32,000 bases of DNA from Desulfosporosinus sp. Sb-LF (GTDB taxonomy: Bacteria; Bacillota; Desulfitobacteriia; Desulfitobacteriales; Desulfitobacteriaceae): contig NZ_SPQR01000013.1 in assembly GCF_004766055.1 (NCBI RefSeq), positions 53,829 through 85,828 on the forward strand, given 5' to 3'. Every line of letters starts with the position of its first letter. Position 1 is the stretch's first letter. Made by a program: the position numbers and the translations under genes. Below, one piece after another: positions 5,376 through 25,574 of the stretch. The notes beneath the pieces are model-generated. The model worked only from the letters and a program-made list of their open reading frames with translations, was not told the DNA's origin and ran no database searches.

Positions 5376-6569
5376 ATGAAACTACCCCTAATGGAATTGC
5401 AAGACCGAGTTTCCGAGTTTCAAGTTAGTTTGCAGAAGAAAGGACTTGAGGGGGCTTTATTGGTTCAACGGGCAGACACCTTGTATTATACAGGAACCGC
5501 TCAAAATGTGCATGCTTATATTCCAAAGGAAGGAAAGCCCCTTGTCATGGCCTATCGTGATTTCAACAGAGCTCAGCAAGAAAGTGCTTGGGGGGTTATT
5601 CCCCTGACGGGCATGTCTAAGATACCTCAATATATTCAGGGAGCAGGGCTCTCTCTGCCGAAACGATTGGGACTGGAACTAGATGTTCTCCCAGTCAACA
5701 ACTTTGAACGTTATCGTAAACTATTTCCGGACGCCTTATTGGTCGATATATCTACTGAGATTCGTTTGCAGAGAGCGGTGAAGTCGGCTTGGGAAATTGC
5801 GCGACTTGAAGAGAGTGCTCAAATCTACCCCCTAGTTCTAGAGTTTGCCAAGGAAGTCCTTCACGTGGGGATGACGGAGGTTGAGTTAGAGGGATTATTA
5901 GAAGGCAAGGCACGGGCGCTTGGACATGGTGCCCATGTTCGGATGCGTGGTTTTAACTCCGAATTTCATCTTGGTGCCATCACTTCAGGAGCAAGGGCCA
6001 CAGAGGCCAGCTGTTTTGATGGGCCAGTCGTAGGACAAGGCATCTCGATCGCTCATCCCTGTGGCGGATCAATGGCTCAGATTCAAGCAGGTGAACCGAT
6101 TGTCATAGACATGGTGACAGTCGTTCATGGTTATCAGATTGACCAAACCCGAATCTTAAGTCTCGGGCCAGTGTCAGAAGAACTAGAAAAGGCCTATGAA
6201 GTGGCCCTAGAGATCGAAGAGAAAGTCCGCTGTGCCTTAATCCCAGGGAGGGAGGCAGGCGAAGTTTATGAGGAAATTCTAGCATGGGTTCGTGAAAATA
6301 CGCCTTATGAGCAAAATTTCATGGGTTATGGGAAAAGCAGGGTGCGTTTTGTCGGACATGGGGTGGGGCTGGACCTTGATGAACTCCCGACCATTAGCAA
6401 GGGAGCAAAAGAGGTGTTAAAAGCCGGAATGGTGGTCGCCATCGAACCGAAATTGGTATTCCCAGGTGTTGGCGTAGTTGGGATAGAAGATACTGTTGTC
6501 ATCGAGACGGAAAAGGGCGCAAGATATTTATCCCAAATTCCCCGGGAATTAATGGTAGTTAAATTTTAG
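5376..6569 (+). CDS. M24-family metallopeptidase (Xaa-Pro aminopeptidase/dipeptidase-like)
   Basis: Creatinase-like N-terminal domain. The pita-bread C-terminal domain carries the HGVGLDLDELP, VVAIEPK and GIEDTVVI motifs. GAAGGAGG lies 7 nt upstream of the ATG at 5376. Confidence 0.85.
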   Translation: MKLPLMELQDRVSEFQVSLQKKGLEGALLVQRADTLYYTGTAQNVHAYIPKEGKPLVMAYRDFNRAQQESAWGVIPLTGMSKIPQYIQGAGLSLPKRLGLELDVLPVNNFERYRKLFPDALLVDISTEIRLQRAVKSAWEIARLEESAQIYPLVLEFAKEVLHVGMTEVELEGLLEGKARALGHGAHVRMRGFNSEFHLGAITSGARATEASCFDGPVVGQGISIAHPCGGSMAQIQAGEPIVIDMVTVVHGYQIDQTRILSLGPVSEELEKAYEVALEIEEKVRCALIPGREAGEVYEEILAWVRENTPYEQNFMGYGKSRVRFVGHGVGLDLDELPTISKGAKEVLKAGMVVAIEPKLVFPGVGVVGIEDTVVIETEKGARYLSQIPRELMVVKF

Positions 6570-7740: not shown

Positions 7741-7768
7741 TTGCAAAATCTCAAAAAGTGGGTATCAT
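7741..7768 (+). promoter_or_regulatory. Candidate sigma-A promoter of the ctsR operon
   Basis: TTGCAA (7741-7746), a 16-nt spacer, then TATCAT (7763-7768). It sits immediately upstream of the CtsR box. Confidence 0.5.
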
Positions 7769-7777
7769 ATAGATAGA

Positions 7778-7795
7778 AGGTCAGGAAAGGTCAAT
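7778..7795 (+). promoter_or_regulatory. CtsR operator (tandem heptad direct repeat)
   Basis: aGGTCAGgaaaGGTCAAt matches the published CtsR box A/GGTCAAAnAnA/GGTCAAA. It lies between the putative -10 and ctsR. Confidence 0.8.
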
Positions 7796-7852
7796 GATGA
7801 ATTATGGAAGAATAGTTTATAAAAAACTAAAAGAACAAGGAGTACAGAAACA

Positions 7853-8323
7853 ATGGGAAACCTCGCGGATCGCATTGAAGAATATTTGAAACGGATTTTG
7901 GAACAAGCGTCGGAAGGGTATATTATGTTACAACGCAGTGAACTTGCTGGAGAGTTCTGCTGTGTTCCGTCTCAAATCAACTATGTTCTCGACACTCGTT
8001 TCACGATTGAACGGGGTTACTTGGTCGAGAGTCGACGGGGGGGCGGAGGGTACCTTCGGATTATCCGCTTAGGAATGGGTCTCGAAGGAGAGTACCAACA
8101 AGTGATGCGGCAATTGATTGGGGAGCAGCTTACACGTGAACGTTCGAAAGGTCTTGTAGAGCGTTTAGTGAACGAAGAATTGGTGACGGCACGGGAAGCG
8201 GCGCTGATTAAGAACGTACTTACGGGTGACGCATTAATAGGAGAGTTTAGAGATTGGGATGTTCTACGTGCACGTCTAATGAAAACCATTTTGACAACGC
8301 TAAGTCGTGACGATTTGTTATAA
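7853..8323 (+). CDS. ctsR: Class III stress-gene repressor CtsR
   Basis: The N-terminus reads NLADRIEEYLKRIL...IMLQRSELAGEFCCVPSQINYVLDTRFT...GYLVESRRGGGGYLRI, with the glycine-rich loop. The operon context agrees. Confidence 0.93.
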   Translation: MGNLADRIEEYLKRILEQASEGYIMLQRSELAGEFCCVPSQINYVLDTRFTIERGYLVESRRGGGGYLRIIRLGMGLEGEYQQVMRQLIGEQLTRERSKGLVERLVNEELVTAREAALIKNVLTGDALIGEFRDWDVLRARLMKTILTTLSRDDLL

Positions 8324-8337
8324 AGGGGGAATTGAGT

Positions 8338-8865
8338 ATGCTTTGTCAACATTGCAAACAGCGGGAGGCAAAGGTGCAGTTATCTAAAATAGAGAATGGA
8401 TTGCCCCATGATGTGTATCTTTGCGAAGTTTGTGCACAACAAACGCACGAAGTAAGTTTTATATTTAACCCCGCGATTGTTCCGGAATTTTTACAAGCCT
8501 TATTTGGGTTTAATCTAACGTCCGTAGAACAGCCTAATGAAATGGCTTGCCCGAAATCTTGCCCGAAGTGTGGAATGACGTTTGCCCAAATTACTCAAGC
8601 CGGAAAGCTGGGATGCAGTACATGCTATGAAACCTTTGAAGCCTATCTTGAACCGTTACTTCGCCGAGTACATGGTGGTGGACAAAATGTAGGCAAAGTT
8701 CCAGCAAGACGTGGAGTTGTCATTAAACGTCGCATGGAACATAGAAAACTAAAAGAGAAACTTCAGGTTTTGATCCAGCAAGAAGCGTTTGAGGAGGCTG
8801 CTGTGGTAAGAGATCAGATTCGGCAAATTGAGCAAGCTCAGGAAGGGGGAAGCCAGGATGCGTAA
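8338..8865 (+). CDS. mcsA: McsA, activator of protein arginine kinase (zinc fingers plus UVR domain)
   Basis: CQHCK/CEVCA and CPKCG/CSTCY zinc-finger pairs. The C-terminal UVR-like segment reads EEAAVVRDQIRQIE. AGGGGGA RBS. Confidence 0.9.
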   Translation: MLCQHCKQREAKVQLSKIENGLPHDVYLCEVCAQQTHEVSFIFNPAIVPEFLQALFGFNLTSVEQPNEMACPKSCPKCGMTFAQITQAGKLGCSTCYETFEAYLEPLLRRVHGGGQNVGKVPARRGVVIKRRMEHRKLKEKLQVLIQQEAFEEAAVVRDQIRQIEQAQEGGSQDA

Positions 8866-9895
8866 GGAGCTTCTTTTACAACACAGCGCGTGGATGACTG
8901 AGACCGATTCTCCGGTTGTCATCAGTAGCAGGGTTCGTCTAGCGCGCAACCTTGAGGATTTTCCTTTCCCGCACGTTTTAAATCTAGAAGGCGCTGGTCA
9001 GATTGAACAGACTGTTTCAAAGGTTTTAACTGAGATAAAGGTGGACAATGGGCCCTTATCCTACCTATCCTTAACGGAGCTAAACAGCGTGGAACGTCAA
9101 GTGCTGATTGAAAAACATTTAATCAGTCCGAGTTTGGGCGGATTGTCCGGAGCGCGAGGTGTGGCGTTAGCTCATGATCACCGATATGCGGTGATGGTTA
9201 ACGAAGAAGATCATTTAAGAGTTCAAGTGCTTTTGCCTGGAAATCAGCTTCTAGAGACCCATCGCTTAGCTACAGAGCTCGACGATGCGCTGGAGGCAAA
9301 CCTTGATTTTGCTTATCGGGAAGGGCAAGGGTATCTCACGTCTTGCCCAACGAATGTGGGCACAGGGCTTAGAGCTTCGGTCATGGTTCATTTGCCTGGG
9401 TTGGTCATAACAAAGCAGGTGCAACAGGTTCTGGGAGCTTTGACACACTTAGGTCTAGCCGTGCGGGGTCTATATGGAGAGGGTTCTCAAGCCTTTGGAC
9501 ATATGTTCCAAGTCTCCAACCAAATTACCCTTGGGAAAAGTGAAGAAGATATTCTAACTCACTTGGAAGCGGTAACAGGACAAATTGTAGAACATGAACT
9601 ACGGGCCAGAGACCTTCTCCAAAAACAAATGCCGATATTATTAGAAGATAAAGTCTGGCGGGCAAGAGGGACTTTGCAAAATGCTCGACTACTCTCGTCA
9701 GAAGATGCTATGCATTTATTATCCCACGATCGCTTGGGGTCGGACATGGGGTTATTGCCCAGGATTAAAGATAGCTTTGCCTCATTGATTGTTGAATCCC
9801 GTCCTGGGTGTTTACAATATATCCTCGATCGGGAACTTGATCCCGGTCAGCGCGACGAAGAACGAGCGCGACTGATAAGAGAACGGGTCGCATGA
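8858..9895 (+). CDS. mcsB: Protein arginine kinase McsB
   Basis: Phosphagen-kinase-like core (EEDHLRVQVL, CPTNVGTGLRASVMVHLPGL). The ATG at 8858 follows GGAAGGGGGA and overlaps the end of mcsA. Confidence 0.93.
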   Translation: MRKELLLQHSAWMTETDSPVVISSRVRLARNLEDFPFPHVLNLEGAGQIEQTVSKVLTEIKVDNGPLSYLSLTELNSVERQVLIEKHLISPSLGGLSGARGVALAHDHRYAVMVNEEDHLRVQVLLPGNQLLETHRLATELDDALEANLDFAYREGQGYLTSCPTNVGTGLRASVMVHLPGLVITKQVQQVLGALTHLGLAVRGLYGEGSQAFGHMFQVSNQITLGKSEEDILTHLEAVTGQIVEHELRARDLLQKQMPILLEDKVWRARGTLQNARLLSSEDAMHLLSHDRLGSDMGLLPRIKDSFASLIVESRPGCLQYILDRELDPGQRDEERARLIRERVA

Positions 9896-10102: not shown

Positions 10103-12544
10103 ATGAAGGGTCGTTACACTGAACGTGCAGAGAAAGTCTTAGCGATAGCCCATAACGAAGCCAAGCGGATGGGACATCCCGTGGTTGGGACGGAACACAT
10201 TTTGCTGGGACTGATTCAAGAAGGCGAGGGAATTGCTGCTCAGGCATTAACAGGCATGGGCTTAGATCTGGATAAGATTCGCAGTCAGGTTGAACAAATC
10301 ACTGGAGTTGGTCAGCCTAACAACGGAGAAGTGGCGTTTACACCGCGTGTCAAAAAGGTTCTAGAGTTGGCGAATGAAGAAGCACATCGCCAAGATGTCA
10401 ATTATATCGGGACAGAACACCTTCTCTTAGGTTTAATCATGGAAGGGGAGGGAATTGCAGCCCGCATTTTAGCAAACCTCAATGTGAGTCCGGAAAGAGT
10501 ATGGAAACAAGTGGTTAAACTTTTGGGTGGAGAATTGGATGAATCAGCGATCCCTGCGTCCAATGCCATACCGACGTCGAAAAATGCTGGTCCTGCGAAT
10601 ACACCCGCGCTCAATGAGTTTGGAAGGGATCTTACACTGCAAGCTCGCGAAGGTCGCCTTGACCCAGTGATTGGAAGAGAAAAAGAAATTGAAAGAGTTA
10701 TCCAGGTCTTAAGTCGACGTTCGAAAAACAATCCAGCCCTGATTGGGGAACCTGGTGTCGGTAAAACAGCCATAGCTGAAGGATTAGCGCAGGGAATTGT
10801 TAGCAATCGGGTACCTGAAACCTTGATTAACAAACGAGTGATTACGTTAGACCTTTCGGCGATGGTCGCTGGAAGTAAATACCGCGGTGAGTTTGAAGAG
10901 CGCTTGAAGAAGGTTATGGAGGAGATTCGCGCGGATGGAAATATTATTCTATTCATTGATGAATTACACACCCTTATTGGAGCAGGGGCTGCAGAAGGTG
11001 CGATTGATGCGGCGAATATTCTAAAACCTGCCTTGGCCCGAGGTGAGCTTCAGTGCATCGGGGCCACAACCTTAGAAGAATACCGGAAATACATTGAGAA
11101 GGATACGGCTTTAGAGCGCCGTTTCCAACCAATCACTGTGGGTGAACCGACTGTCGAAGAGGCCATTCAGATTCTTTTCGGGTTACGAGATCGTTATGAG
11201 GCTCATCATCGGGTGAAGATTTCAGATGAAGCGATTGAGGCAGCGGCTCGACTATCCGATCGGTATGTCGCCGATCGATTCTTACCAGACAAAGCTATTG
11301 ATTTAATGGATGAAGCCGCATCACGAGTTCGTCTCGCTAGTTATACCACACCGCCTGATTTAAAATTACTTGAAGAAGAAACTGGACGCCTAAAGAAAGA
11401 AAAAGAAGCGGCGGTTTCCAGCCAGGAATTTGAGAAGGCGGCGCAAATCCGTGATCAAGAACAAAAACTCCGTGTAGAGCTTGCTGAACAACGAGAGCAA
11501 TGGCAGAATCAGCGTTACAAAGACAATGCGATGGTTACTGAAGATGATATAGCTCAGATTGTGGCGAGCTGGACGGGAATCCCTGTTAAGAAGTTAGCCC
11601 AGGAGGAAAGCGAACGCCTCCTGCATTTGGAGGAACTCTTGCATCAACGGTTAATCGGACAGGAGGATGCCGTTACAGCAGTGGCTAGGGCGGTCCGCCG
11701 CGCTCGGGCAGGATTAAAAGATCCCAAGCGCCCAATAGGCTCCTTTATCTTTCTTGGACCAACAGGGGTCGGGAAAACTGAACTAGGTCGTGCCTTAGCA
11801 GAAGCAATGTTCGGGGATGAAAAGGCATTGATTCGCATCGATATGTCGGAGTATATGGAAAAACATGCGGTCTCTCGGTTAGTAGGAGCGCCTCCGGGAT
11901 ATATCGGACATGACGAAGGGGGTCAACTTACTGAATCGGTAAGACGTAAACCCTACAGTGTGGTTTTGCTAGATGAGATAGAAAAGGCACATCCTGAAGT
12001 GTTTAATATTTTACTGCAAGTACTTGAAGATGGGCGGCTAACAGACACTAAGGGAAGGACCGTCGATTTTCGAAATACGGTGATCATCATGACTTCCAAC
12101 GTGGGATCGTCCTTCTTGAAGAAGGAAGCAATGGGGTTCGCTCCGAAAAAAGATGAGAAAACTGATTATAAAAATATGCGTGGACATGTTATGGAAGAGC
12201 TTAAGCGCTCTTTCCGACCAGAGTTCCTAAATCGTATTGACGAGTTAGTAGTTTTCCATTCCCTCCAAGAGGAACATTTGGAGAAGATCACGGAAATCTT
12301 GATGAGCCAGGTAAACAAACGGTTGAGTGATCATGGCTTGGATTTACAGACTGAGAAAAGTGCCATTAAATTGATTGCTAAAGAGGGAAATGATCCGGTT
12401 TTCGGAGCTCGTCCAATCCGGCGTGCCATCCAACGTTTGATCGAAGATGCTCTTTCTGAGAAAATTATCGAGGGAGAATTTAAAGCCGGTGATAAGATCG
12501 GCGTTGAAGCAGTAGATGGGAAAATGAAGTTTTCTAAGAAGTAA
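10103..12544 (+). CDS. clpC: ATP-dependent Clp protease ATP-binding subunit ClpC
   Basis: Clp_N repeats. Two AAA modules are present ([16 protein letters not shown]), along with a middle UVR motif ([11 protein letters not shown]). 813 aa. Confidence 0.96.
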
Positions 12545-12549
12545 ACGGT

Positions 12550-12583
12550 GTAGTAGGGGCAATTCATTAATTGCCCCTACTAC
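12550..12583 (+). terminator. Very stable hairpin between clpC and radA, acting as an attenuator, a processing site or a weak terminator
   Basis: Perfect 15-bp stem GTAGTAGGGGCAATT / AATTGCCCCTACTAC with the 4-nt loop CATT. The only downstream U-tract is the short AATTTG. Confidence 0.5.
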
Positions 12584-12607
12584 AATTTGAGATGGAGCGT
12601 TGTATGT

Positions 12608-13996
12608 ATGAAGACCAAGATGATTTACAGATGTTCTAATTGCGGATCAGAAAGCCCTAAATGGATGGGTAAGTGTCAAAGCTGTGATTCTTGGAATACC
12701 TATGAAGAAGTAATAAGTCAACCTAAAACGACATCTTCAAAGAGTCAAAGAAAGACATCCGCCAAGAGATTATCTGAGGTTTTAGCGGGAAACAGTGATC
12801 GGATTGTGACGAGTATTCATGAATTTAACCGAGTTCTGGGTGGGGGAATCGTTCGAGATTCCATCATCATCTTGACTGCAAGGCCAGGCGCAGGAAAATC
12901 AACGTTGCTCCTGCAAGTGGCCGATGATGTTGCTTCTAAAGGATACAAGGTTCTATATGCTTCTGCCGAAGAAAGTGACAGTCAAATTAAAAATAGGTCA
13001 GACAGAATCCTAAATGGAAGTAGGAGCAACATCTGGTTATATTCGGATACAAGCATGAATAACGTTCTTGATTCGATTGAGGAAATAGACCCAGATTTGA
13101 TTATCATCGATAGTATCCAAACCTTTACTCTCCAAGAGCACAATTCCCGCCCAGGCTCACCCATTCAGACGATGGAGTGTGCTAACGAACTCTTAAAAGT
13201 AGCAAAGAATAACAGCCGTCCCAGAGCCGTAATCATGGTCGGGCAAATGACGAAAGATGATGAAATAGCCGGACTACGGGCCTTAGAGCATCTTGTCGAT
13301 GCTGTGTTAATCTTGAACGGTGAAAATGGGGAAGAATTGCGGGGAGCCTGGTGCTCCAAGAACAGATTCGGGAGCACGGGCGAAATAGGCTTTTTCTCCA
13401 TGACCGAACAAGGGATGTTATCGATTGACAATCCATCTGAGTTTTTTATGACTCAAAGAGGAGAGGGACAAAAAGTTTCAGGTAGTGCTTTAGCCGTCAT
13501 CAAAGAGGGGACACGCCCGATTATCGTGGAAATTGAAAGTCTGGTCTCGAAGTCTTTTACACCCTATCCGTCAAGAATTGCAGAGTGCTTGAGAAGAGAT
13601 CAATTAAATACTCTGATTTCGATTTTGGAACAAAGAGGGAAGATTAATCTCTACGATAAAAATGTTGTGATTAAAACCACAGGTGGGCTTCAACTTAAAG
13701 AACAAGCGGTAAGTTTGGCCATCATTATGTGTATTGTTTCCTCGGTGAAGGATAAAGCAATTCCCAATGACACAGTGTTTGTAGCGGATGTGGGACTTAC
13801 TGGGGAACTCAAAAAGGTACCTTCGATTGAGGCACGTATAAGAGAAATAGATCGGATGGGATTCAGACGTGTCTATGTCGCAAAAAATACAGTCAGAGAT
13901 GTAGCGAGGTTTAAGAATCTGGAAATCATAGAGCTCAACACGTTGTATGATGTGATTATGCACTTGAATATGAAGACTGTAGCTAAGGATCAATAG
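12608..13996 (+). CDS. radA: DNA repair protein RadA/Sms (divergent)
   Basis: N-terminal zinc ribbon CSNCG...CQSC. Walker A reads ARPGAGKSTLLLQ. The RadA signature KNRFGSTGEIGFFSM is present, followed by a Lon-like C-terminal domain. It occupies the canonical position after clpC. Confidence 0.85.
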   Translation: MKTKMIYRCSNCGSESPKWMGKCQSCDSWNTYEEVISQPKTTSSKSQRKTSAKRLSEVLAGNSDRIVTSIHEFNRVLGGGIVRDSIIILTARPGAGKSTLLLQVADDVASKGYKVLYASAEESDSQIKNRSDRILNGSRSNIWLYSDTSMNNVLDSIEEIDPDLIIIDSIQTFTLQEHNSRPGSPIQTMECANELLKVAKNNSRPRAVIMVGQMTKDDEIAGLRALEHLVDAVLILNGENGEELRGAWCSKNRFGSTGEIGFFSMTEQGMLSIDNPSEFFMTQRGEGQKVSGSALAVIKEGTRPIIVEIESLVSKSFTPYPSRIAECLRRDQLNTLISILEQRGKINLYDKNVVIKTTGGLQLKEQAVSLAIIMCIVSSVKDKAIPNDTVFVADVGLTGELKKVPSIEARIREIDRMGFRRVYVAKNTVRDVARFKNLEIIELNTLYDVIMHLNMKTVAKDQ

Positions 13997-14190
13997 GATG
14001 GCTTCTAATGTTGATAGAGCGAACCTCATAGTTAATCGTCTCAATAGCTGGACCCGGAAATGGTTATGTAGGCAGGCCTGAGTGTTTTTGATCTCATCAA
14101 AGAGTTAGGAATTATGAGGTTTGTTGAGATCCGTATATAGTTATCCCATAATACTATAGAGTTATCGTTATTTAGTAGGGGGTTAGAAAC

Positions 14191-15198
14191 ATGGAGATAA
14201 CGTTGAGAGAAACTAAAATTACGCAAACATCCACTCACTTGATGGCGAGTGATATTATAGGTTCATGGAAGGCCCGTTGGGGAATTGGTCGAATGAATTA
14301 TAGGGTTGAGCCTGGCCTTTATAGCGTGGGAAAACCTGACAGTAATTCGCCTGTCTTGGTTTCAGCTAATTACAAACTCAGCTTCGATATGTTAAGAAAA
14401 GAATTAACGGGATTGGATGTCTGGATTTTAATCCTCGATACTAAGGGGATTAATGTGTGGTGTGCTGCGGGAAAGGGTACATTTGGAACGAATGAGCTAT
14501 TGAACCGTATTACACTTGTTCAACTAGGGAAGGTAGTTTCTCACAAAACGGTTATTTTGCCACAGTTGGGGGCACCGGGGGTGAGTGCTCACGAGGTTTC
14601 AAAGTATTCGGGTTTTAAGGTCCTTTATGGCCCGGTGAAGGCAAAGGATATAAAGGAATTTCTCAATTCGGGAATGAAAGCTACCACTGACATGCGGACG
14701 GTCAAGTTCGAAGTCTACGATAGACTGGTTTTGACGCCTATAGAATTGGTCGGTACTTTTAAAGTTTCTTTAATGATTTTTGGCATACTCTTTATCTTAA
14801 ATCTCCTTGGCGTGGGACCGTTTGGTGGGGTTGATCTCTACGCCTATCTGGGCGCCGTCATCGCAGGATGTGTTTTAACCCCAATCTTGTTGCCCTGGGT
14901 CCCTGGCAGGGCTTTCTCCTGGAAGGGTTGGGTCGTAGGATTTATTTGGGCCGTCGCAGTGAATGTACTTAATGGTTGGAATGGATGGACGGCTGTACCA
15001 CAATATGGTTTATTGAGAGCTTTGGGATATCTGCTGATTTTGCCGTCTGTATCAGCGTTTTATGCCATGAACTTTACCGGATCTTCGACGTACACTTCCT
15101 TTTCAGGAGTTTTGAAAGAGATGAGAATAGCAGTTCCAGCGATAGTCATTTCTATTAGCTTAGGGATCGTGTTGATCCTGATTAACAGCTTTATTTAA
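14191..15198 (+). CDS. hgcA: Mercury methylation corrinoid protein HgcA
   Basis: The diagnostic cap-helix motif GINVWCAAGKGTFGT is present. The N-terminal corrinoid-binding domain reads WGIGRMNYRVEPGLYSVG...SPVLVSANYKLSFD. The C-terminal half has multiple TM helices. GGGGG RBS. Confidence 0.9.
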   Translation: MEITLRETKITQTSTHLMASDIIGSWKARWGIGRMNYRVEPGLYSVGKPDSNSPVLVSANYKLSFDMLRKELTGLDVWILILDTKGINVWCAAGKGTFGTNELLNRITLVQLGKVVSHKTVILPQLGAPGVSAHEVSKYSGFKVLYGPVKAKDIKEFLNSGMKATTDMRTVKFEVYDRLVLTPIELVGTFKVSLMIFGILFILNLLGVGPFGGVDLYAYLGAVIAGCVLTPILLPWVPGRAFSWKGWVVGFIWAVAVNVLNGWNGWTAVPQYGLLRALGYLLILPSVSAFYAMNFTGSSTYTSFSGVLKEMRIAVPAIVISISLGIVLILINSFI

Positions 15199-15220
15199 CC
15201 TAGTAAGGAGTTGATTTTCC

Positions 15221-15520
15221 ATGAGGCATCAATATTTAAAGAATGTTACGACGTTGAAACTGAAGTCGGATAGGTGTAAGGGCTGTGGAAAGTGTCTTGA
15301 GGTTTGTCCGCATAAGGTATTTTCTTTAAATAATGGCAAATCAGATATCGTCGATATAGATCGATGCATGGAATGTGGTGCGTGTGTTAAAAACTGTCCG
15401 TTTAATGCATTAGAAGTAAAGCCAGGTGTTGGTTGTGCTTTCGCGATCATTATGGGCTGGCTGACTGGAACTGAACCGAGCTGCGATTGTTCGGGTGACA
15501 ACGGCGGAAGTTGCTGCTAG
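15221..15520 (+). CDS. hgcB: Mercury methylation ferredoxin HgcB
   Basis: Two CxxCxxCxxxCP motifs are present (CKGCGKCLEVCP, CMECGACVKNCP). A conserved mid-protein Cys (GVGCAF) and the C-terminal vicinal cysteines (...GGSCC) are also present. The gene lies immediately downstream of hgcA. Confidence 0.88.
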   Translation: MRHQYLKNVTTLKLKSDRCKGCGKCLEVCPHKVFSLNNGKSDIVDIDRCMECGACVKNCPFNALEVKPGVGCAFAIIMGWLTGTEPSCDCSGDNGGSCC

Positions 15521-15546
15521 CTGGTCAGATGGCATACAAAATAATT

Positions 15547-15583
15547 AAGTCCCATGCTAACAATTTGTAGCATGGGACTTTTT
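15547..15583. terminator. Rho-independent terminator shared by hgcB and the convergent nitroreductase gene
   Basis: 13-bp perfect stem AAGTCCCATGCTA / TAGCATGGGACTT followed by a T-run. Confidence 0.8.
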
Positions 15584-15620
15584 GAATACTCCTAGTAACC
15601 TTATTCTACTAACTTTTTTA

Positions 15621-16145
15621 TTAGAACGTCTCATACCAAACCGTGTTATCAATACTCTTGCGTAAGGTACTATGTCTCTCCGAGGATACTGGTTCGCTGG
15701 CTGAATATCCTATTGCTAAAATATTTAATGGCTCGAAATTATCGGGTAGTTTAAATTCGTCTCGTATAATTTTCTCATTAAAATAACAAATCCAACACGT
15801 TCCCAGTTCTAGCTCTGTCGCTTGCAACATCATATGATCAGTTACAATGCTAGCATCAATCTCAGCGATATCTTTACCATCGTGGGGCCTTTTCCATGAA
15901 ACACTATGGTCAGCACAGATGATCAACGCTAGAGGTGCCCCATATACATTGGCGCCTTTGGCCAGTTTCTCTAATCCCTCTTTCTCTCGAATAACAAGGA
16001 TCCTTTGGGGTTGAGTATTTGCGCCAGTAGGAGCAATTCTACCTGCCTCAAGGATCTTTTGTAATTTTCCCTCGTCGACCTTTTTGGGTCCATACTTACG
16101 TATTGAAGATCTTTTTTTAGCCAATTCCAAAAAACTCATTTGCAA
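15621..16145 (-). CDS. Nitroreductase-family protein (FMN-dependent)
   Basis: RSSIRKY...APTGANTQPQRILV is typical of the nitroreductase fold. 174 aa. Confidence 0.85.
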   Translation of the reverse strand: MQMSFLELAKKRSSIRKYGPKKVDEGKLQKILEAGRIAPTGANTQPQRILVIREKEGLEKLAKGANVYGAPLALIICADHSVSWKRPHDGKDIAEIDASIVTDHMMLQATELELGTCWICYFNEKIIRDEFKLPDNFEPLNILAIGYSASEPVSSERHSTLRKSIDNTVWYETF

Positions 16146-16265
16146 TCACCCTTTCAGATATTAGCAATTATTATAGCAGAAATAAAATCAGATATGAAAT
16201 GTGAGTACCATGAGTACTGAAATGGGGCAATGAACTTGGCAAAGAGAAGAAATTAAGGATATCTC

Positions 16266-16292
16266 AGTTATCTCAGAAATTCTAAGATAACT
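16266..16292. promoter_or_regulatory. Inverted repeat, a candidate operator upstream of the DsrE-like/reductase operon
   Basis: AGTTATCT-N11-AGATAACT, about 65 nt upstream of the start at 16357. Confidence 0.3.
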
Positions 16293-16356
16293 CTTTTGCG
16301 CATAGGTATTTAGTGATAAACTGGTATAAATAAAAAATTATAGTTGGAGGCAAGAT

Positions 16357-16698
16357 ATGATGTCATTTGCTTACTTAATCACCTCAGATACCATTGGCCA
16401 TCAAGATTCGGAACTGGGTAAACGCCTGATGCACAGTTTCTTCATTAAGCTCTTGGAGGCTGCTGAGAAACCATCCCATATTCTCTTTCTCGAAACTGGT
16501 GTTAAGCTTCTATTACCCGAATTTACGGCTGTTGATGCCCTGAAGATTTTAGCGGAGGAATTCGGTGTAACACTGTTGGCCTGTGTAACCTGTCTAGATT
16601 ATTACGGTATCAGGGATAAGATCGAGGTCGGTGAGGTTTCCACCATGCACGAGATTATCAATGTTATGCACCAAAGCAATAAAGTGATACATATTTAG
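16357..16698 (+). CDS. DsrE/DsrF-like protein, resembling the C-terminal domain of YedF-type sulfur/selenium-relay proteins
   Basis: 113 aa. The pattern is ITSDTIGHQDSELG...ILFLETGVKLL...LACVTCLDYYG....IHI. GGAGG RBS. Confidence 0.65.
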   Translation: MMSFAYLITSDTIGHQDSELGKRLMHSFFIKLLEAAEKPSHILFLETGVKLLLPEFTAVDALKILAEEFGVTLLACVTCLDYYGIRDKIEVGEVSTMHEIINVMHQSNKVIHI

Positions 16699-16724: not shown

Positions 16725-17993
16725 ATGGATAACAGAGAATTATGGACAGCCCTGGGGATGGATTTAGAGAAACATGATGATTTCCTGGCCCCTATTCCAG
16801 AGGTTTATACGAACTTATTTTTAAATCGGCCTAATCGTCCGAAAGCGATGGGGTATTTTGACATGGTAGTTGGAGATGTGCATGGGATTCGCGTGCACGA
16901 ACTTTATGCCATGAAGGAAGCGGGAGCTAAGGTATTCTCGACCTTTTGCGTCTATGTTCCAGAGGAAATTGTCGTGGCAACAGGGAGTGCCAGCATTGGA
17001 TTATGTGCTGGGGCCCAGTATACGGTCTCTTCAGGAGAAAAAGTCTTGCCTCGCAACCTTTGTCCGCTGATTAAGTCCACTATGGGCTTTAAACTTGATC
17101 GAATTTGTCCGTATTTTCAAATCTCCGATTGGGTCATCGGGGAGACGACGTGTGACGGAAAGAAGAAAGCGTGGGAAATTCTCAATGAACACATCCCGAC
17201 CTATGTGATGGAGCTCCCGCAAAAGAAAGAAGCTAAAGACGCCCGCCTATGGGAAGAGGAAGTGCGTGAATTTGCCTCCTTTATTGAGCGCGAGACTAAG
17301 GTTGACTTAACTGCTGAGAATCTTGCCCAGGGTATCCAGACGATTAACAATAAACGTCAAGCACTTCAAAGGTTAGCCAATCTGAGAAAACATAACCCAG
17401 CCCCTATTCAAGGCTTAGATGTTCTGCTGATCAATCAACTCTCCTTCTTTGACGATCCAGTGCGCTTTACTGCTCAAGTCAATGCTCTGTGTGACGAACT
17501 AGATGAGCGAGTTAAGGCGGAGATTGGAGTGGCACCTGCTGATGCACCTAGGATTTTAGTGACGGGAACTCCGCAACCGCTTCCAGCTTGGAAACTTCAT
17601 GCTTTAATCGAACAAGCCGGGGCAGTCGTCGTTGGAGAGGAAACTTGCACGGGAGAGCGCTATTATAAGGACGTCACTGAGTCTGCGGAGAACGTATCGG
17701 ATATGCTCGCTAATATTGCTAAGCGCCCCTTAAAGGTGAATTGTGCTTGTTTTACGCCAAATCAAGGACGTATGGAAGACATTACTCGCATGGCCGAAAC
17801 TTTAAAAGCCGATGCCGTGATTGATTTTACCCTTCAGTTCTGTCAGCCCTATGGCGTGGAAAGCTATTTTGTGGGTAAGGAAATGGAAAAGAAAAAAATT
17901 CCTTTCTTGCGCTTAGAAAGCGATTTTTCTGAAGAGGATCAGGGGCAACTCTTGACCCGAATTGAAGCCTTAATCGAGATGATTCGCGCATGA
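16725..17993 (+). CDS. 2-hydroxyacyl-CoA dehydratase/BcrC/HgdB-family protein (single-subunit, double-cubane-cluster-type anaerobic reductase architecture)
   Basis: 422 aa carrying the family-typical Cys motifs (GLCAG, NLCPLIK, GETTCDGKKK, EETCTGERYY, QFCQPY). AGGAGG RBS. The gene is followed by an activase gene that overlaps its stop codon. Confidence 0.85.
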   Translation: MDNRELWTALGMDLEKHDDFLAPIPEVYTNLFLNRPNRPKAMGYFDMVVGDVHGIRVHELYAMKEAGAKVFSTFCVYVPEEIVVATGSASIGLCAGAQYTVSSGEKVLPRNLCPLIKSTMGFKLDRICPYFQISDWVIGETTCDGKKKAWEILNEHIPTYVMELPQKKEAKDARLWEEEVREFASFIERETKVDLTAENLAQGIQTINNKRQALQRLANLRKHNPAPIQGLDVLLINQLSFFDDPVRFTAQVNALCDELDERVKAEIGVAPADAPRILVTGTPQPLPAWKLHALIEQAGAVVVGEETCTGERYYKDVTESAENVSDMLANIAKRPLKVNCACFTPNQGRMEDITRMAETLKADAVIDFTLQFCQPYGVESYFVGKEMEKKKIPFLRLESDFSEEDQGQLLTRIEALIEMIRA

Positions 17994-18730
17994 GGCAAGC
18001 AGGGTTAGACCTTGGCTCGGTTAATACGAAGTTGGTTGTCTTAAATAATGGGGAACGAATTTACAGCCGAGTCATACCCTCCCGTTTCGATTCTGTCCAA
18101 GCGGGTATAACCTTATTAAAGACCTATGTCGAAGAACACGGAGAGAAACCTGACAAGCTCGTGGTCACAGGGTATGGACGAGTAAACTTTCCAGAGGGTC
18201 GGGTCATTACAGAAATTACTTGTCAAAGTAGAGGGTGTCACGCCTATTTTCCAGATAATGCGCACATTCTCGACTTAGGGGGGCAAGACGCTAAGGTAAT
18301 TAAGAAAAATGCCGAAGGAAGAGTCGTTCAGTTCATTATGAATGACAAGTGTGCCGCCGGAACGGGGCGTTTTTTGGATGTTATCCTTAAGGGATTGGAT
18401 CTAACGACGGAGGAGCTGGATTTAGCTGCAGAGGCTAAGCCAATGCCTATCAATTCGATGTGTACGGTTTTCGCTGAATCGGAAGTCATTACCCTGCTTG
18501 CCAAAGGGATTCCAAAACCCGAGGTGATTGCAGGTCTCTTCAAAAGCACGGCCAAACGTCTCGCTAATTTTGTCGAGTCTGTCGGACATCCCGATGATTT
18601 AATTTTCACGGGTGGAGGCGCACATTATGGTCTCCTAGTCCACTTTCTTGAACAGGAGTTAAAGGCGAAGATTATAATACCATCGGAGCCTGAGTTAACC
18701 GCTGCTTTAGGCGCAGCATCCCTTGCATAA
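17990..18730 (+). CDS. Acyl-CoA dehydratase activase-type ATPase (BcrA/BcrD/HgdC family)
   Basis: Contains the ASKHA-fold motifs GLDLGSVNTK, DLGGQDAKVI and NDKCAAGTGRFLD. ATGA overlap with the upstream gene. Confidence 0.88.
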   Translation: MRQAGLDLGSVNTKLVVLNNGERIYSRVIPSRFDSVQAGITLLKTYVEEHGEKPDKLVVTGYGRVNFPEGRVITEITCQSRGCHAYFPDNAHILDLGGQDAKVIKKNAEGRVVQFIMNDKCAAGTGRFLDVILKGLDLTTEELDLAAEAKPMPINSMCTVFAESEVITLLAKGIPKPEVIAGLFKSTAKRLANFVESVGHPDDLIFTGGGAHYGLLVHFLEQELKAKIIIPSEPELTAALGAASLA

Positions 18731-19031: not shown

Positions 19032-19370
19032 ATGGTTAATATTACAGAACTCGCAGCACAAAAGGTCAAAGAGGTGCTAAAAATGCAAAATAAAGAAGAT
19101 GCATTTCTTCGTCTCTATCTTGCAGGGTCTGGTTGTAGTAGACCGAATTTTGGCATGACTCTGGATGAATCCAAAATGGATGAAGATATTCTTGACGAAG
19201 AATTTGGTGTTAGAATACTCACGGATCAAAAACTTTCTATTTATTTAGAGGGAGCCATCATTGACTTTGTCGAGGCAAATGGCAGTGGGGGTTTCGAAAT
19301 ACGTACGGCAAAGATCTCTGATGGCGGAAGCTGTGGTGGAGGTTGTGGTGGCTGCAGCGGAAGCTGTTAA
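19032..19370 (+). CDS. HesB/IscA-family iron-sulfur cluster carrier-like protein with a Cys/Gly-rich C-terminal tail
   Basis: ITELAAQKVKEVL...LRLYLAGSGCSRPNFGMTLDE...ILTDQKLSIYLEGAIIDF is a typical IscA fold. The tail is GGSCGGGCGGCSGSC. AAGGAGG RBS. Confidence 0.8.
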   Translation: MVNITELAAQKVKEVLKMQNKEDAFLRLYLAGSGCSRPNFGMTLDESKMDEDILDEEFGVRILTDQKLSIYLEGAIIDFVEANGSGGFEIRTAKISDGGSCGGGCGGCSGSC

Positions 19371-19470
19371 TATGGCAGGAAAAAGAGAGCCCGATTTAAT
19401 TTGAGGCTCTCTTTGATTATTGGAATTTCTATTACTTAATGATAAAATCAGATAAGGAGGTGGCATAGAA

Positions 19471-19650
19471 ATGAGTGAAGAAGAAAGTAAGCTGTGGCAA
19501 TGCCAGATGCAAAGTTGTGGATATATTTATAATTCCGAAAAAGGCTGTAAAAAAAGTAAGATACCTAAGGATGTTCGCTTTGAGGAATTGCCTGATACTT
19601 GGAGATGTCCCTTATGTGGGGCTGGCAAAAAGATGTTTAAACCTGTGTAA
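19471..19650 (+). CDS. Rubredoxin-like protein, 59 aa. It is absent from the ORF track because it falls below the 60-aa cutoff.
   Basis: My own translation is MSEEESKLWQCQMQSCGYIYNSEKGCKKSKIPKDVRFEELPDTWRCPLCGAGKKMFKPV. It carries the rubredoxin hallmarks CGYIY, F..LP..W.CP.CGA.K..F. An AAGGAGGTG RBS lies 7-8 nt upstream. Confidence 0.8.
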   Translation: MSEEESKLWQCQMQSCGYIYNSEKGCKKSKIPKDVRFEELPDTWRCPLCGAGKKMFKPV

Positions 19651-19903
19651 GTTTCAAGGCATCCGTTTATTGGGTGCTGTCTTATGCTTATAACTACCTA
19701 TAACTGGAGGATAAATGTTATAAGAGAAGAACTCTTGGTTCTAACATCCATAAATTCCTTTTTATTACACTTTGAAACGTAAAAATTATTGTATTTTGTA
19801 AAAAATGATTTATTATGATGAGGACTTTTTAAAGTGCAATGAAGCCTTCAGAAGAGCATTACTTTTCTAAAGGCTTTTTTCATATGTTTGAAAGGAAGAT
19901 CTG

Positions 19904-20399
19904 ATGCATAATAAGACAGAAGAAACCAACACATTTTACCAACCAATCATCTCCGTTGCCAAAAAAATCATAGGGATTGAAAGTTTAGCAAGAGGGCTAG
20001 ATAAGCTAAAAGGAACAGTTATTTCTCCTCTTGAAAGTAATAAAACAGAGGATTTCGATGATTTGCTTGTGGAAGTTGTTAACAAACAAGAAAACCGAGT
20101 TAAGCATTGAATGTGCATATATACTTGATGAACAAGGCGTTCAGGTCAGTAACACAATATTTAGTAGTGCTGACAGAAAGTATCGTCAAATACTAATGTT
20201 TTATCCGGCCGTAAAAGGTGCAGATAACTCACTAAAGAAATATTATTATAAACTCATGAATTCTAGAGAGCGTAAGTATCTTTCTAACCCTTATGTGTCC
20301 CATGCGACCGGGAATGTTTGTATAACGGCGACTAGCGTTTTCATGCAAACTAATAATAAAAACTATATATTATGTGTAGATTTGATACATGAATTATAG
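19904..20399 (+). pseudogene. Decayed EAL-domain/YkuI-like c-di-GMP signalling gene. It has an internal deletion and a frameshift between two overlapping ORFs.
   Basis: ORF 19904..20110 starts an EAL domain (FYQPIISVAKKIIGIESLARG...GTVISPLE) but stops after about 45 residues of that domain. The overlapping +1 ORF 20031..20399 encodes a PAS/Cache-like sensor segment (GADNSLKKYYYKLMNSRERKYLSNPYVSHATGNVCITATSVF...ILCVDL). This is the domain order seen in YkuI-type proteins. Confidence 0.45.
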
Positions 20400-20605
20400 C
20401 CAAAAGGTAACAATAAAGGGCGATTAGCAAAGTCTCAATATGGACGTGAGATTCCATAATGTTAAAGTAAGCCTTATTAAAATGATGAATCAACTTGACA
20501 GCGAGCTCAACAAATTGATTTATTCCAATGCGTGGATAATGTTATGGAGCAGATCAGATGTGTCAGAATGAGAGCCGCTAATAGTTTTAAAATGGGGGTA
20601 ATAAT

Positions 20606-21021: not shown

Positions 21022-22371
21022 TTATACACCATATTTTTTCAGACGATAAAGTAGAGTCGGACGAGAAATGCCTAAATATTTAGCGACCTTTGTCTGGTTA
21101 TTATTATGCTTTTCCATAGCCTTGATAATAAGGTGTTTCTCCAACTCTTCTAATGAGAAACCACCCTCTGTAAGGCTTATTACAGGCGTTATAGTTTCCT
21201 CTGAGTTATTAAGTAATTCCTTGGGAAAATGGACTGGCTTAATTTCAGCGCCCTGACAAACAATGAGCGCTCTTTCAATCGCGTTCTGAAGCTCTCTTAT
21301 ATTACCAGGCCAGTTATAGCGAGTTAGAACTTTCATCGATTCTGAGGAAATTTTCTTGCTGCGGGAAGGATCAAATTTTTCAAGAAAATGATTAACCAGA
21401 AGGGGAATATCTTCTTTCCTTGATCTAAGCGGCGGCATAATGATATGCAGGACATTTAGTCGATAATAAAGGTCCTCCCTGAAGGCACCATTGGCAATGG
21501 CCGTGGTAAGATCTACATTCGTGGTGGCAATGACTCGGACATCGACATGGATGGTTTCAGTGCCTCCAACTCGTTCAAAACACCGTTCCTGTAGTACCCT
21601 CAGTAACTTCGCCTGCATACTGAGTGGCATTTCTCCGCTCTCATCCAGGAAAATCGTTCCCTTATCAGCAAGTTCAAATCGGCCCTTCTTTTTACTGGTT
21701 GCCCCTGTAAAGGCACCTTTTTCATGGCCAAATAACTCGCTTTCTAACAGTTGTTCTGGAAGGGCCGCACAGTTTACCGCTACAAAGGGCTTATCAGCTC
21801 GGTTGCTAGCTTTATGTATTTCCACAGCAGCGACTTCTTTGCCAGTTCCACTTTCTCCTGTTATCAGAACAGTTGCACTCGTTTTCGCAACCTGTTGAAC
21901 TAAGAGGGCAACCTCTTTCATAGCCTCACTCTGGCCAACAATTTTCCCGTACTTCTTACCTAATTCCTGACGTAGAAAATCAACCTGGTTTTCTAAATTA
22001 GAGAGATGTAAGGCTTGCTTAACATGTACCTTTAATTCCTCTAGCTTAAAAGGTTTCGTAATGTAATCCGTGGCCCCAATTTTCATGGCTTCGATTGCAG
22101 TGTCAATGGTGCCGTGGGCGGTAATCATAATGACAGGTATGCTGAAGTTTATTTTTTTAATCTCTTTTAAAACCTCAATACCATCAATGTCTGGCATCTT
22201 TAAATCCAATATTACCATCGAGGGTTCGTTTTTTTGGGCCAAGTCAATCCCTTGTAAACCTCTTGTGGCAGTGGCTACCTGATAGCCTTCATGACTTAGT
22301 GCCCTCTCGAGGGCCCAGCACATTCTTTCTTCATCGTCAATTACCAGAATTTTCGGTGTCAAGAAGATCAC
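21022..22371 (-). CDS. Sigma-54-dependent response regulator (NtrC/AtoC family: REC + AAA+ + Fis-type HTH)
   Basis: REC domain (ILVIDDEE...DLKMPDIDG). AAA+ domain with Walker A GESGTGKE and the sigma-54 contact loop GAFTGA. C-terminal HTH (QTKVAKYLGISRPTLLYRLKKYG). Confidence 0.93.
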   Translation of the reverse strand: MIFLTPKILVIDDEERMCWALERALSHEGYQVATATRGLQGIDLAQKNEPSMVILDLKMPDIDGIEVLKEIKKINFSIPVIMITAHGTIDTAIEAMKIGATDYITKPFKLEELKVHVKQALHLSNLENQVDFLRQELGKKYGKIVGQSEAMKEVALLVQQVAKTSATVLITGESGTGKEVAAVEIHKASNRADKPFVAVNCAALPEQLLESELFGHEKGAFTGATSKKKGRFELADKGTIFLDESGEMPLSMQAKLLRVLQERCFERVGGTETIHVDVRVIATTNVDLTTAIANGAFREDLYYRLNVLHIIMPPLRSRKEDIPLLVNHFLEKFDPSRSKKISSESMKVLTRYNWPGNIRELQNAIERALIVCQGAEIKPVHFPKELLNNSEETITPVISLTEGGFSLEELEKHLIIKAMEKHNNNQTKVAKYLGISRPTLLYRLKKYGV

Positions 22372-23914
22372 TCCTGTCGCAAAATTGTGGAATTACGGGA
22401 AGATTAATGATAAAGGTTGATCCCTTGCCCAGGCCACTATTCACATCGATCGTTCCACCATGCAGTTGAATACTTTGATAGGATATCGATAGTCCTAGAC
22501 CGGTGCCTGTTTTCTTGGTCGTGTAGAAGGGATCAAATATTCTTAGCGTTTCCTCTGCCGGGATGCCCTCTCCGGTATCTGAGAAACTGATCATAATCAT
22601 GTTGTCAGTTTCTTTTGTTATTATTTCTAATTTGCCACCTGAAGGCATAGCTTCGGCAGCATTTACAATGATATTGACAAAGACCTTTTTTAGCTTTTCG
22701 GTATCGGCTAAAATCTTAGAAAGGTTGCTGTCAAGCTGCAATTCAACACTTACCTTCTGCCCTCTTAACATCGCTGCTGAAAAAGAGAGGACTCCCGTGA
22801 TCAAATCGTTGACGGAACACTCCTTAATAGAAACTTTGGTAGGACGTCCAAAGTCCAGGAGTTCTTGAATTTCCATGTCCTGACGGTCAACCTGTTCGTC
22901 TATGGCCTTTGTAAATTCCTCGATACCACTTACTTGCGAGTATTCTTGCTTCATAAGTTCGACTAAGGTTTTGATAATACCGATAGGGTTACGCAATTCA
23001 TGAGCCACACCCGTTGCTAAACGACCAAGCGCAATAAGGTGTTCGGATTGCTTGAGTTGGTCTTCAAGCCGTTCCTTTTCGCCTAGGCCTACAGCCATCC
23101 TGTTGACGGCTTGGGCTACTTGCCCCAGTTCACCCGACATCTCAGGCAACAAGTGATGGATATCTTTCTCCATACTTTGTAATCCCAGCTTTAAGCGGTC
23201 GACCCCTGTGGTTAAATTTCTGATGATTAAAAGGGTACCAATCATAACTAAGGCTAGAACGCCAAGCATGAAATAACGTAGTAGTTTCCGAAAGTAATTA
23301 CTCTGGTAAAAGAAGGGATTAAGTCGCTCCTCAACCCACATAACGGCGACTACTTTCCCTTTTAGTACAACTGGAGAAGTGTACTCAACGACCTGATCAT
23401 CCCAAGAACCAGAAATCCGAAAGAGTGGTCCGTTATCCACCTCGGTCGCTATCAGGCCTGGTTTAGCATTGGCAAAGATTTCTCTCTCCCTCTGAGCTTC
23501 TTCTTCCTGCGAGAGGTTACGATAATTATGTAGGAAACCTAATACCGTAATCTTCTCTGTACGAGGAACATATAGACCGAAACGGATGCCTGGATTTGCA
23601 GGAATTTGGGGTTCTACGGCCTGGGTAAACTCATTAGTAAGGATGGCTAATGAGATATCTTGTGGCGGCCCTGACCAGCTTAACTCTAAATTTCTCGAAA
23701 ACTCATTGTTTGTACTTTTGACCAAGGCCTCCAGTCGCTGCTCTTTGTCCAAGAATACAACTTCATCCGTCCGTGAGGCAAAAAAGATGTCGTACATAAA
23801 AGCGACTAAAGGTACAAGCATGATTGCTGCTATGATAATCACGATCTGATTCGTAAGGCTATAGCGTTTAAAAAAAGAAAATATTTTTTTATTTCTAATA
23901 TTGATCATCTCCAT
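22337..23914 (-). CDS. Sensor histidine kinase (two TM helices around an extracytoplasmic sensor domain of about 170 aa, then HAMP, HisKA and HATPase_c)
   Basis: H-box GVAHELRNPI. N-box NIIVNAAEAM. G-boxes DTGEGI and GTGLGLS. Hydrophobic segments lie at about residues 20-45 and 205-230. The 3' end overlaps the regulator gene. Confidence 0.9.
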   Translation of the reverse strand: MEMINIRNKKIFSFFKRYSLTNQIVIIIAAIMLVPLVAFMYDIFFASRTDEVVFLDKEQRLEALVKSTNNEFSRNLELSWSGPPQDISLAILTNEFTQAVEPQIPANPGIRFGLYVPRTEKITVLGFLHNYRNLSQEEEAQREREIFANAKPGLIATEVDNGPLFRISGSWDDQVVEYTSPVVLKGKVVAVMWVEERLNPFFYQSNYFRKLLRYFMLGVLALVMIGTLLIIRNLTTGVDRLKLGLQSMEKDIHHLLPEMSGELGQVAQAVNRMAVGLGEKERLEDQLKQSEHLIALGRLATGVAHELRNPIGIIKTLVELMKQEYSQVSGIEEFTKAIDEQVDRQDMEIQELLDFGRPTKVSIKECSVNDLITGVLSFSAAMLRGQKVSVELQLDSNLSKILADTEKLKKVFVNIIVNAAEAMPSGGKLEIITKETDNMIMISFSDTGEGIPAEETLRIFDPFYTTKKTGTGLGLSISYQSIQLHGGTIDVNSGLGKGSTFIINLPVIPQFCDRSDLLDTENSGN

Positions 23915-25568: not shown

Positions 25569-25574
25569 AAACAT

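Follow-up and report, generated by a model that had tools for sequence, protein, structure and literature searches.

Analysis of a 32,000-nt stretch of the genome of Desulfosporosinus sp. Sb-LF (contig NZ_SPQR01000013.1, positions 53,829 to 85,828; referred to here as the window) revealed a pair of adjacent genes, hgcA and hgcB, of the mercury methylation type. It is very probable that positions 14191–15520 encode a genuine two-gene HgcA/HgcB system carried by a 2.28-kb insert after the radA gene; the pair most likely came from an arsR-hgcAB copy within the same bacterial family. The identity of the genes is not new: public databases already carry the correct annotation of hgcAB for this strain, and the family, its mechanism and the host genus are all familiar. 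Only the address of the pair right after radA and the loss of arsR stand out; both are mildly unusual and leave current understanding unchanged.

The two open reading frames (ORFs), both on the + strand, encode a corrinoid protein of 335 aa with a cap-helix cysteine (Cys91) and a C-terminal membrane domain (hgcA, 14191–15198), and a 99-aa ferredoxin with two [4Fe-4S] clusters and a C-terminal CC (hgcB, 15221–15520). When compared with the curated NCBI equivalog models, HgcA scored 502.3 bits against NF040863 (cutoff 275), with residues 10–335 covering profile positions 1–325 of 325, and HgcB scored 136.1 bits against NF040864 (cutoff 99). These values are far beyond chance and bear out the initial annotation of this DNA, which had been made from the sequence alone and had recognized a true hgcAB pair. 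An NCBI/UniRef entry with exactly the same HgcA sequence (100% identity) exists under the name [quoted passage not shown].

The sequence features on which the initial annotation relied were all found. The cap helix NVWCAAGK occupies HgcA residues 88–95, with the cysteine at residue 91, and fits the N(V/I)WCA(A/G)GK signature. The C-terminal half of the protein (residues 179–335), described earlier as containing multiple transmembrane segments, has four hydrophobic segments above the threshold in a simple Kyte-Doolittle hydropathy analysis (not a topology predictor), and a fifth, weaker stretch was read by eye at approximately residues 243–262. In HgcB, the two CX2CX2CX3CP motifs are CKGCGKCLEVCP at residue 19 and CMECGACVKNCP at residue 49; these are followed by Cys72 and by the terminal CC (residues 98–99). 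As annotated, 22 nt (15199–15220) separate the two genes, and an AAGGAG ribosome-binding site precedes the hgcB start codon.

HgcA of strain Sb-LF is 76% identical, over its full length and in colinear fashion, to proteins of Desulfitobacterium metallireducens and Desulfosporosinus youngiae, both of which reportedly methylate mercury in culture (so Gilmour and co-workers are said to have found in 2013). These two species are hgcAB-positive and belong to a panel of pure strains of Hg methylators (PMC5038027). Compared with the HgcA and HgcB of Pseudodesulfovibrio mercurii ND132, D. metallireducens, D. youngiae and D. acidiphilus, the Sb-LF pair has the same two-gene layout, NVWCAAGK helix and membrane domain, and the same two CX2CX2CX3CP motifs, mid-protein cysteine and terminal CC in HgcB. 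It differs in that hgcAB lies directly after radA with no ArsR-type gene upstream, and in that methylation is predicted from the genes alone.

In some sources, several true HgcA proteins of Desulfosporosinus (P0023, P0062, P0070, P0112 and P0120) are still listed under the older name "CO dehydrogenase/acetyl-CoA synthase gamma subunit", an annotation inconsistency which could mislead name-based surveys.

The boundaries of the insert were defined, as the initial annotation had proposed, by comparison with related genomes that lack hgcAB at this site. Homology with the relatives stops exactly at the radA stop codon (13996) and resumes at 16277, approx. 80 nt before the start of a dsrE-like gene; the lineage-specific segment therefore extends from 13997 to 16276 (2,280 bp). 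Within it lie hgcA and hgcB, a terminator that acts in both directions, and a nitroreductase gene convergent with the pair. Its left end is the spacer between radA and hgcA (13997–14190, + strand; 194 nt). At its right boundary, the conserved upstream region of the dsrE-like gene begins (16277–16356, + strand), where blastn matches to three relatives (L002, L003 and L019) start at 16277–16278.

In order to place this insert in the gene order of the family, we mapped the proteins of the window onto 74 radA loci, taking one genome per species. The clpC gene directly precedes radA in all Desulfosporosinus loci with enough upstream sequence, and the full ctsR-mcsA-mcsB-clpC-radA series is present in nearly all of them. 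Neither hgcA nor hgcB was found after radA at any other sampled locus, approx. 35 of which are from other Desulfosporosinus, so the placement given in the initial annotation, directly behind radA, is indeed an insertion relative to related genomes. At 13 loci, including the outgroups L033 and L051, radA is followed within 50–250 nt by a block that begins with an oppositely oriented ORF of 135 aa and continues with a carD-like gene, a yacL-like gene encoding a PIN domain, ispD, ispF (these two confirmed by NCBIfam) and gltX. The same block is displaced by 0.5–5.3 kb of variable DNA at nine further loci, and at nine loci and in the window it was not seen within the available 8.5–18 kb; in Sb-LF it is absent from at least 18 kb downstream. 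The order radA, carD-like, yacL, ispD, ispF, gltX, documented in these 22 loci including outgroups, is thus the ancestral one in the family.

The initial annotation had assumed that a Bacillus-type series of disA, yacL and ispDF was replaced by hgcAB. The yacL-ispDF part of that series holds for the family; disA does not, since those Desulfosporosinus loci in which the carD-like/yacL/ispDF block is still next to radA have no DisA-sized ORF after radA. The replacement itself also has to be revised. In the closest relatives, including D. metallidurans (L002, RadA 94% identical) and loci L004, L005, L024, L026, L063 and L008, a dsrE/YedF-like gene already lies approx. 0.1–1 kb after radA, mostly followed by genes for a double-cubane-cluster reductase and its activase, so hgcAB did not by itself displace the ispDF block. 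Compared with the Bacillus-type order (ctsR-mcsA-mcsB-clpC-radA-disA...yacL-ispD-ispF-gltX), the ctsR-radA part is conserved in Sb-LF, whereas the block is missing for at least 18 kb downstream. A mosaic of anaerobic redox genes takes its place, with hgcAB as the part nearest to radA.

The junction downstream of radA carries different cargo in other strains. It holds a 101-aa ORF in D. metallidurans, and ORFs of 384 aa and 211 aa in the metagenome-assembled genome L003; judged by eye, the former looks like an FAD-dependent oxidoreductase (N-terminal GxGxxG) and the latter like a lipoprotein. The 3′ junction of radA is therefore a variable hotspot in the genus, with hgcAB as the most radA-proximal module in Sb-LF. 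Across Desulfosporosinus, the inserts found after radA range from 0 to more than 10 kb, their cargo differs by lineage (the dsrE-like gene alone, the whole dsrE-like/double-cubane reductase/activase trio, or a sigma-54 regulator gene in L030/L031), and they part radA from the carD-like/yacL/ispD/ispF/gltX block.

An ArsR-type regulator, which is often found beside hgcAB, had been noted as missing at this locus, and both parts of that statement were confirmed. A tblastn search of the whole window, spacer included, with four ArsR proteins from related loci revealed no ArsR-type gene or remnant (best E = 0.94), and the gene directly upstream of hgcA is radA and not an HTH_5 gene on the same strand. 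In contrast, the closest homologues of HgcA whose gene context could be read, all from Desulfosporosinus loci (L076, L077 of D. burensis, L078 of D. fructosivorans, and L082; 78–81% identical), are encoded by hgcAB pairs located directly behind an ArsR-type HTH_5 gene of 105–116 aa, at unrelated genomic sites. Of 72 Bacillota-type hgcA loci for which 450 nt or more of the preceding sequence was available, 42 have an ArsR-like gene immediately upstream of hgcA and none has radA there; the remaining 30 are arsR-less, and such loci are thus common overall. The ArsR2 clade of strain ND132 has been reported only in Desulfovibrionaceae. Given that no ArsR gene or remnant is present in the window, regulation of the Sb-LF hgcAB must differ from that of the arsR-hgcAB loci.

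The arrangement is not an artifact of assembly. Logan contig L001 is identical to the window, and two independent metagenome contigs, L080 (ENA ERZ27247098) and L081 (JGI 3300029959), encode an HgcA 94% identical to that of Sb-LF and share its gene order: after the 3′ end of radA come a shorter spacer, the hgcA and hgcB genes, the same hairpin and, on the opposite strand, the nitroreductase gene. The presence of the same junctions in all three contigs rules out an assembly chimera. Comparison of Sb-LF with L080 gave dN/dS values of 0.097 for hgcA and 0.158 for hgcB, with dS of approx. 0.27, and both genes are thus under purifying selection. Since the order is common to Sb-LF and the sister contigs at this dS, the arrangement, shared with one uncultured sister lineage, predates the split of the two lineages. 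The spacer between radA and hgcA is less well conserved: that of L080 measures 117 nt and aligns poorly with the Sb-LF spacer, for which no homologue was found in the other fetched loci, including the upstream regions of other hgcA loci. The Sb-LF spacer also contains a 12-nt inverted repeat (14022–14033 and 14110–14121; 11/12 complementary, 76 nt apart), whose counterpart is absent from the shorter spacer of L080; a small insertion and a hairpin with a regulatory role are both possible.

The phylogeny of HgcA, recommended in the initial annotation, placed the protein among the HgcAs of the Desulfitobacteriaceae. In a neighbour-joining tree without bootstraps, Sb-LF and the 94% identical sequence fell inside the Desulfosporosinus/Desulfitobacterium radiation, and the best HgcA matches all come from one of these two genera. 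HgcA of Sb-LF is 76–78% identical to those of five other Desulfosporosinus species, for which RadA identity is 89–91%; among the five species themselves the corresponding values are 76–84% and 87–94%, and the divergence of HgcA relative to RadA is therefore typical for the genus. These data favour relocation or within-family exchange, with loss of arsR, over transfer from a distant phylum. The source would most likely have been a copy of the usual arsR-hgcAB type within Desulfosporosinus or the Desulfitobacteriaceae, from which arsR would have been lost on relocation.

From what is known of the family, a mechanism can be proposed for the encoded system. HgcA would bind a corrinoid, with the cap-helix Cys91 ligating the cobalt, and would be anchored in the membrane by its C-terminal helices. 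A methyl group from the one-carbon (methyl-tetrahydrofolate) pool would reach Hg(II) by way of the methyl-corrinoid, yielding methylmercury, and HgcB would supply low-potential electrons that return the cobalt to Co(I). Cys72 and the Cys98-Cys99 pair of HgcB would probably take part in the handling or binding of Hg(II). Mercury methylation by the Sb-LF host, which reduces sulfate and comes from Schloeppnerbrunnen II, an acidic peatland (PMC6639609), is thus a reasonable prediction from its gene content.

Several points weigh against this reading of the locus. The announcement of the Sb-LF genome makes no mention of mercury or hgc (PMC6639609), and the physiological substrate of HgcAB is debated. 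The tree described above is a neighbour-joining tree without bootstraps, built from HgcA alone, and the order of events (insertion at this site as opposed to loss elsewhere) would follow from parsimony across the sampled loci. Finally, the initial annotation had given the pair its own candidate promoter, and this holds only in part. The sigma-70-type string TTGAGA-17-CATAAT is present (14124–14152, + strand) and agrees with the consensus at 10 of 12 positions, but such patterns occur at chance level (6 found vs 7.5 expected in shuffled sequence) and, in L080, the −10 hexamer aligns with TATAGT and the −35 hexamer is not conserved. The string is a chance-level pattern match and is no evidence of a promoter.

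The debate on the substrate leads to an alternative in which the selected function of the Sb-LF HgcAB is another corrinoid-dependent reaction, such as halomethane dehalogenation or a step of one-carbon metabolism, and mercury methylation is a side reaction. According to a 2026 preprint (10.64898/2026.04.26.720869), heterologously expressed HgcAB dechlorinates CCl4, and halomethanes were proposed there as alternative substrates. Consistent with such a role, hgcAB is under purifying selection in a peatland organism without obvious Hg exposure (PMC6639609), and its neighbours encode anaerobic redox enzymes (the nitroreductase and the double-cubane reductase), not metal-resistance functions. However, the sequence does not discriminate between substrates of HgcAB, and a different selected function would be compatible with an organism that still methylates mercury. 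We regard this alternative as rather unlikely, although it is the one that survives best.

A second alternative concerns the expression of the pair. If arsR was lost on relocation, transcription of hgcAB would therefore depend on the local candidate promoter, on read-through from radA, or on both. Transcription entirely by read-through would place hgcAB under control of the operon upstream, which, as annotated initially, comprises five genes on the + strand, all backed by Pfam or NCBIfam matches and domains. These are ctsR (7853–8323; Pfam CtsR N-terminal domain, 1.6e-34, and C-terminal domain, 4.1e-17), mcsA (8332–8865; NF053706, 8.2e-49, 165.9 bits, below the equivalog cutoff of 210), mcsB, encoding a protein arginine kinase (8828–9895; NF002194, 429.8 bits vs a cutoff of 385), clpC (10103–12544; an 813-aa ORF with Clp_N, two AAA, UVR and ClpB_D2-small domains, 84–92% identical across other Desulfosporosinus-labelled loci) and radA (12587–13996; TIGR00416, 437.5 bits vs a cutoff of 403; gene callers start it at ATG 12608, giving 462 aa). 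Ahead of ctsR, a putative CtsR-box-like direct repeat, GGTCAGG AAA GGTCAAT (7779–7796, + strand), was recognized by eye and has three mismatches to the textbook consensus; a consensus search for the CtsR operator allowing up to two mismatches found no match. A promoter-like site (7741–7768) lies just upstream of this repeat.

Read-through from radA into hgcAB is possible because neither a + strand terminator-like site nor significant structure (z = −0.82 for the fold of the spacer) separates the two genes, which lie 194 nt apart on the same strand. The lack of an ArsR gene, the chance-level candidate promoter with its non-conserved −35 hexamer, and the CtsR-box-like repeat are also in line with the proposal that hgcAB is transcribed from the CtsR-controlled operon and not from a promoter of its own, and that methylation capacity rises with heat or proteotoxic stress. 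Against this stands a perfect 16-bp GC-rich hairpin located right after the clpC stop codon and before radA (12549–12584), which may already uncouple radA from the operon. This hairpin has no good U-tract on the + strand; it may be an mRNA stabiliser or a partial terminator within the stress operon, and may limit the extent of the CtsR-controlled transcript. Moreover, a −10-like element (CATAAT/TATAGT) is kept in position before hgcA in both lineages, and many terminators and promoters escape simple scans. We therefore consider such stress-dependent read-through unlikely. A more specific version, in which hgcAB of the Sb-LF lineage lost its ArsR-type regulator and was captured by the 3′ end of a CtsR-controlled class III stress operon with no terminator between, seems to us quite improbable. 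If true, it would mean that the methylation capacity of a peatland sulfate reducer is co-expressed with the protein-quality-control and DNA-repair stress response and is not under ArsR-type control.

The strong terminator noted in the initial annotation was confirmed as a bidirectional intrinsic terminator common to hgcB (+ strand) and the nitroreductase gene (− strand), located at 15547–15580 and conserved as a hairpin in L080 and L081. Its stem is a perfect 13-bp helix (15547–15559/15568–15580) followed by TTTTTG, and its folding z-score is −3.86, with none of 200 shuffled sequences folding as well.

A further alternative, raised by the "probably horizontally shaped" distribution invoked in the initial annotation, is that a mobile element recently brought hgcAB here by horizontal transfer from a distant taxon. 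That no other sampled genome has hgcAB at this site, that the junction is a hotspot with different cargo in different strains, and that extensive inter-phylum transfer of hgcAB has been inferred in the literature (PMC7438021) all fit such an event. However, a distant donor is at odds with the exclusively Desulfosporosinus/Desulfitobacterium best matches and with the genus-typical ratio of HgcA to RadA divergence, and the dS of approx. 0.27 to the sister contig indicates that the arrangement is not very recent. The insert also lacks the usual signs of a mobile-element islet. There is no GC anomaly (0.44, compared with a window mean of approx. 0.42); the 2.28-kb segment holds only hgcA, hgcB and the nitroreductase gene, with no transposase, integrase or tRNA gene; and the search for flanking direct or inverted repeats returned only short, chance-type matches, the sole direct repeat being 12 nt long with one mismatch. 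Such a transfer is thus quite improbable, and the suggestion of the initial annotation is weakened in this sense.

The last alternative, that the pair is a non-methylating paralogue, whether a Wood-Ljungdahl corrinoid iron-sulfur protein (CFeSP; AcsC/CdhE-type) or a fusion of the HgcAB-like kind, is refuted by the profile scores and can practically be discarded. It could draw on the Pfam result, in which CdhD (PF03599) is the sole domain of HgcA, on the name "acetyl-CoA synthase gamma subunit" still attached to some homologues, and on the solved structures, where HgcA residues 37–161 align to the C-terminal ~120 residues (chain residues ~314–444) of the CFeSP large subunits 2h9a, 4c1n and 4djd of the Protein Data Bank. 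However, HgcA scored only 74.5 bits (cutoff 306) against the CFeSP gamma subunit model NF003195, and the match is confined to profile positions 322–446, the last 125, which form the C-terminal corrinoid domain. Against the fused HgcAB-like model NF043039 (cutoff 285), HgcA gave 198.5 bits with partial coverage and HgcB gave 62.9 bits. Both values lie below the cutoff, and hgcA and hgcB are two separate ORFs whose products have the NVWCAAGK cap helix, the membrane domain and the CC tail. The initial annotation had named scores in the range of these paralogues as grounds for abandoning the assignment; with 502.3 bits against the HgcA model (cutoff 275), this is not the case. HgcA does share a homologous corrinoid-binding domain with the CFeSP large subunit (AcsC/CdhE, ~445 aa), but differs from it in lacking the N-terminal 4Fe-4S and TIM-barrel domains and in having the cysteine cap helix and the membrane domain.

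The third gene of the insert encodes a nitroreductase-family flavoprotein of 172 aa (15621–16139, − strand; Pfam PF00881, 5e-27) and is convergent with hgcB. The protein matches an NCBI entry of strain Sb-LF, is a generic member of PF00881 and scored below every NCBIfam equivalog cutoff, including that of BluB (42 vs 150 bits). The gene follows hgcB in L080 and L081 as well, and is absent from the other hgcA loci examined (more than 80) and from the other radA loci. The contexts of four close homologues were compared. One of them (L164, ENA ERZ27237442 k141_642054, 6001–6549; 80% identical) lies in a cbi cobalamin-biosynthesis cluster with cbiJ, several precorrin methylase genes, cbiG, cbiD and cbiQ/O, another (L163, 81%) has cbiQ approx. 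5 kb away, and the remaining two (L165, 76%, and L166, 77%) are in unrelated contexts. The two cbi contexts are a weak hint of a corrinoid link, and a functional tie to HgcA is not supported; given the BluB score, the mixed contexts and the absence of the gene from the other hgcA loci, we rejected a consistent link, as BluB or another corrinoid-linked enzyme.

Beyond the insert, the window continues with the dsrE/YedF-like gene (16357–16698; 107.4 bits, just under the cutoff of 110 for the selenium-metabolism YedF), the gene for the double-cubane-cluster anaerobic reductase (16725–17993; 486 bits) and that for the ATP-dependent activase which follows it (17990–18730), all on the + strand. This trio is conserved directly after radA in many Desulfosporosinus (L002, L004, L005, L024, L026 and others). 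The right edge of the insert (16266–16292) contains a near-perfect 13-nt palindrome, AGTTATCTCAGAA/TTCTAAGATAACT, followed by a motif, CATA...ATTTAGTGATAA...ATAA, which seven or more relatives also have ahead of their dsrE-like gene; palindrome and motif may be an operator and a promoter for the dsrE/double-cubane operon.

Further downstream, 19032–19650 holds an IscA/HesB-family gene, which is below the cutoff on the model of a selenoprotein-associated subfamily, and a small rubredoxin gene (called in L001) comes after it; the stretch 19500–20500 is low in GC (0.34). A selenium- or sulfur-trafficking theme is possible near the dsrE-like and IscA/HesB genes. Positions 21022–23914 (− strand), 24615–26063 and 26796–27149 contain genes for a sigma-54-dependent response regulator and a histidine kinase (AtoC/AtoS-like) beside a TauE/SafE sulfite-exporter-family gene and a gene for a CGGC-domain protein, in the same region, which takes the place of the relatives' ispDF block. 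A protein of 573 aa that combines TerB_N and TerB_C domains (29934–31655) is 70–77% identical to proteins encoded downstream of the double-cubane cluster in D. metallidurans (L002, 9812–11542) and D. fructosivorans (L005, 16165–17859). In Sb-LF its gene lies approx. 11 kb further off than in those relatives, which points to additional insertions between the activase gene and the TerB gene.

The genuine hgcAB pair described here adds one more cultured Desulfosporosinus from acidic peatland to the predicted methylmercury producers. It also offers a clean case, arisen in nature, of hgcAB parted from its ArsR-type regulator and set in a defined variable junction, and could help the study of hgcAB regulation and of the movement of hgcAB within a genus.

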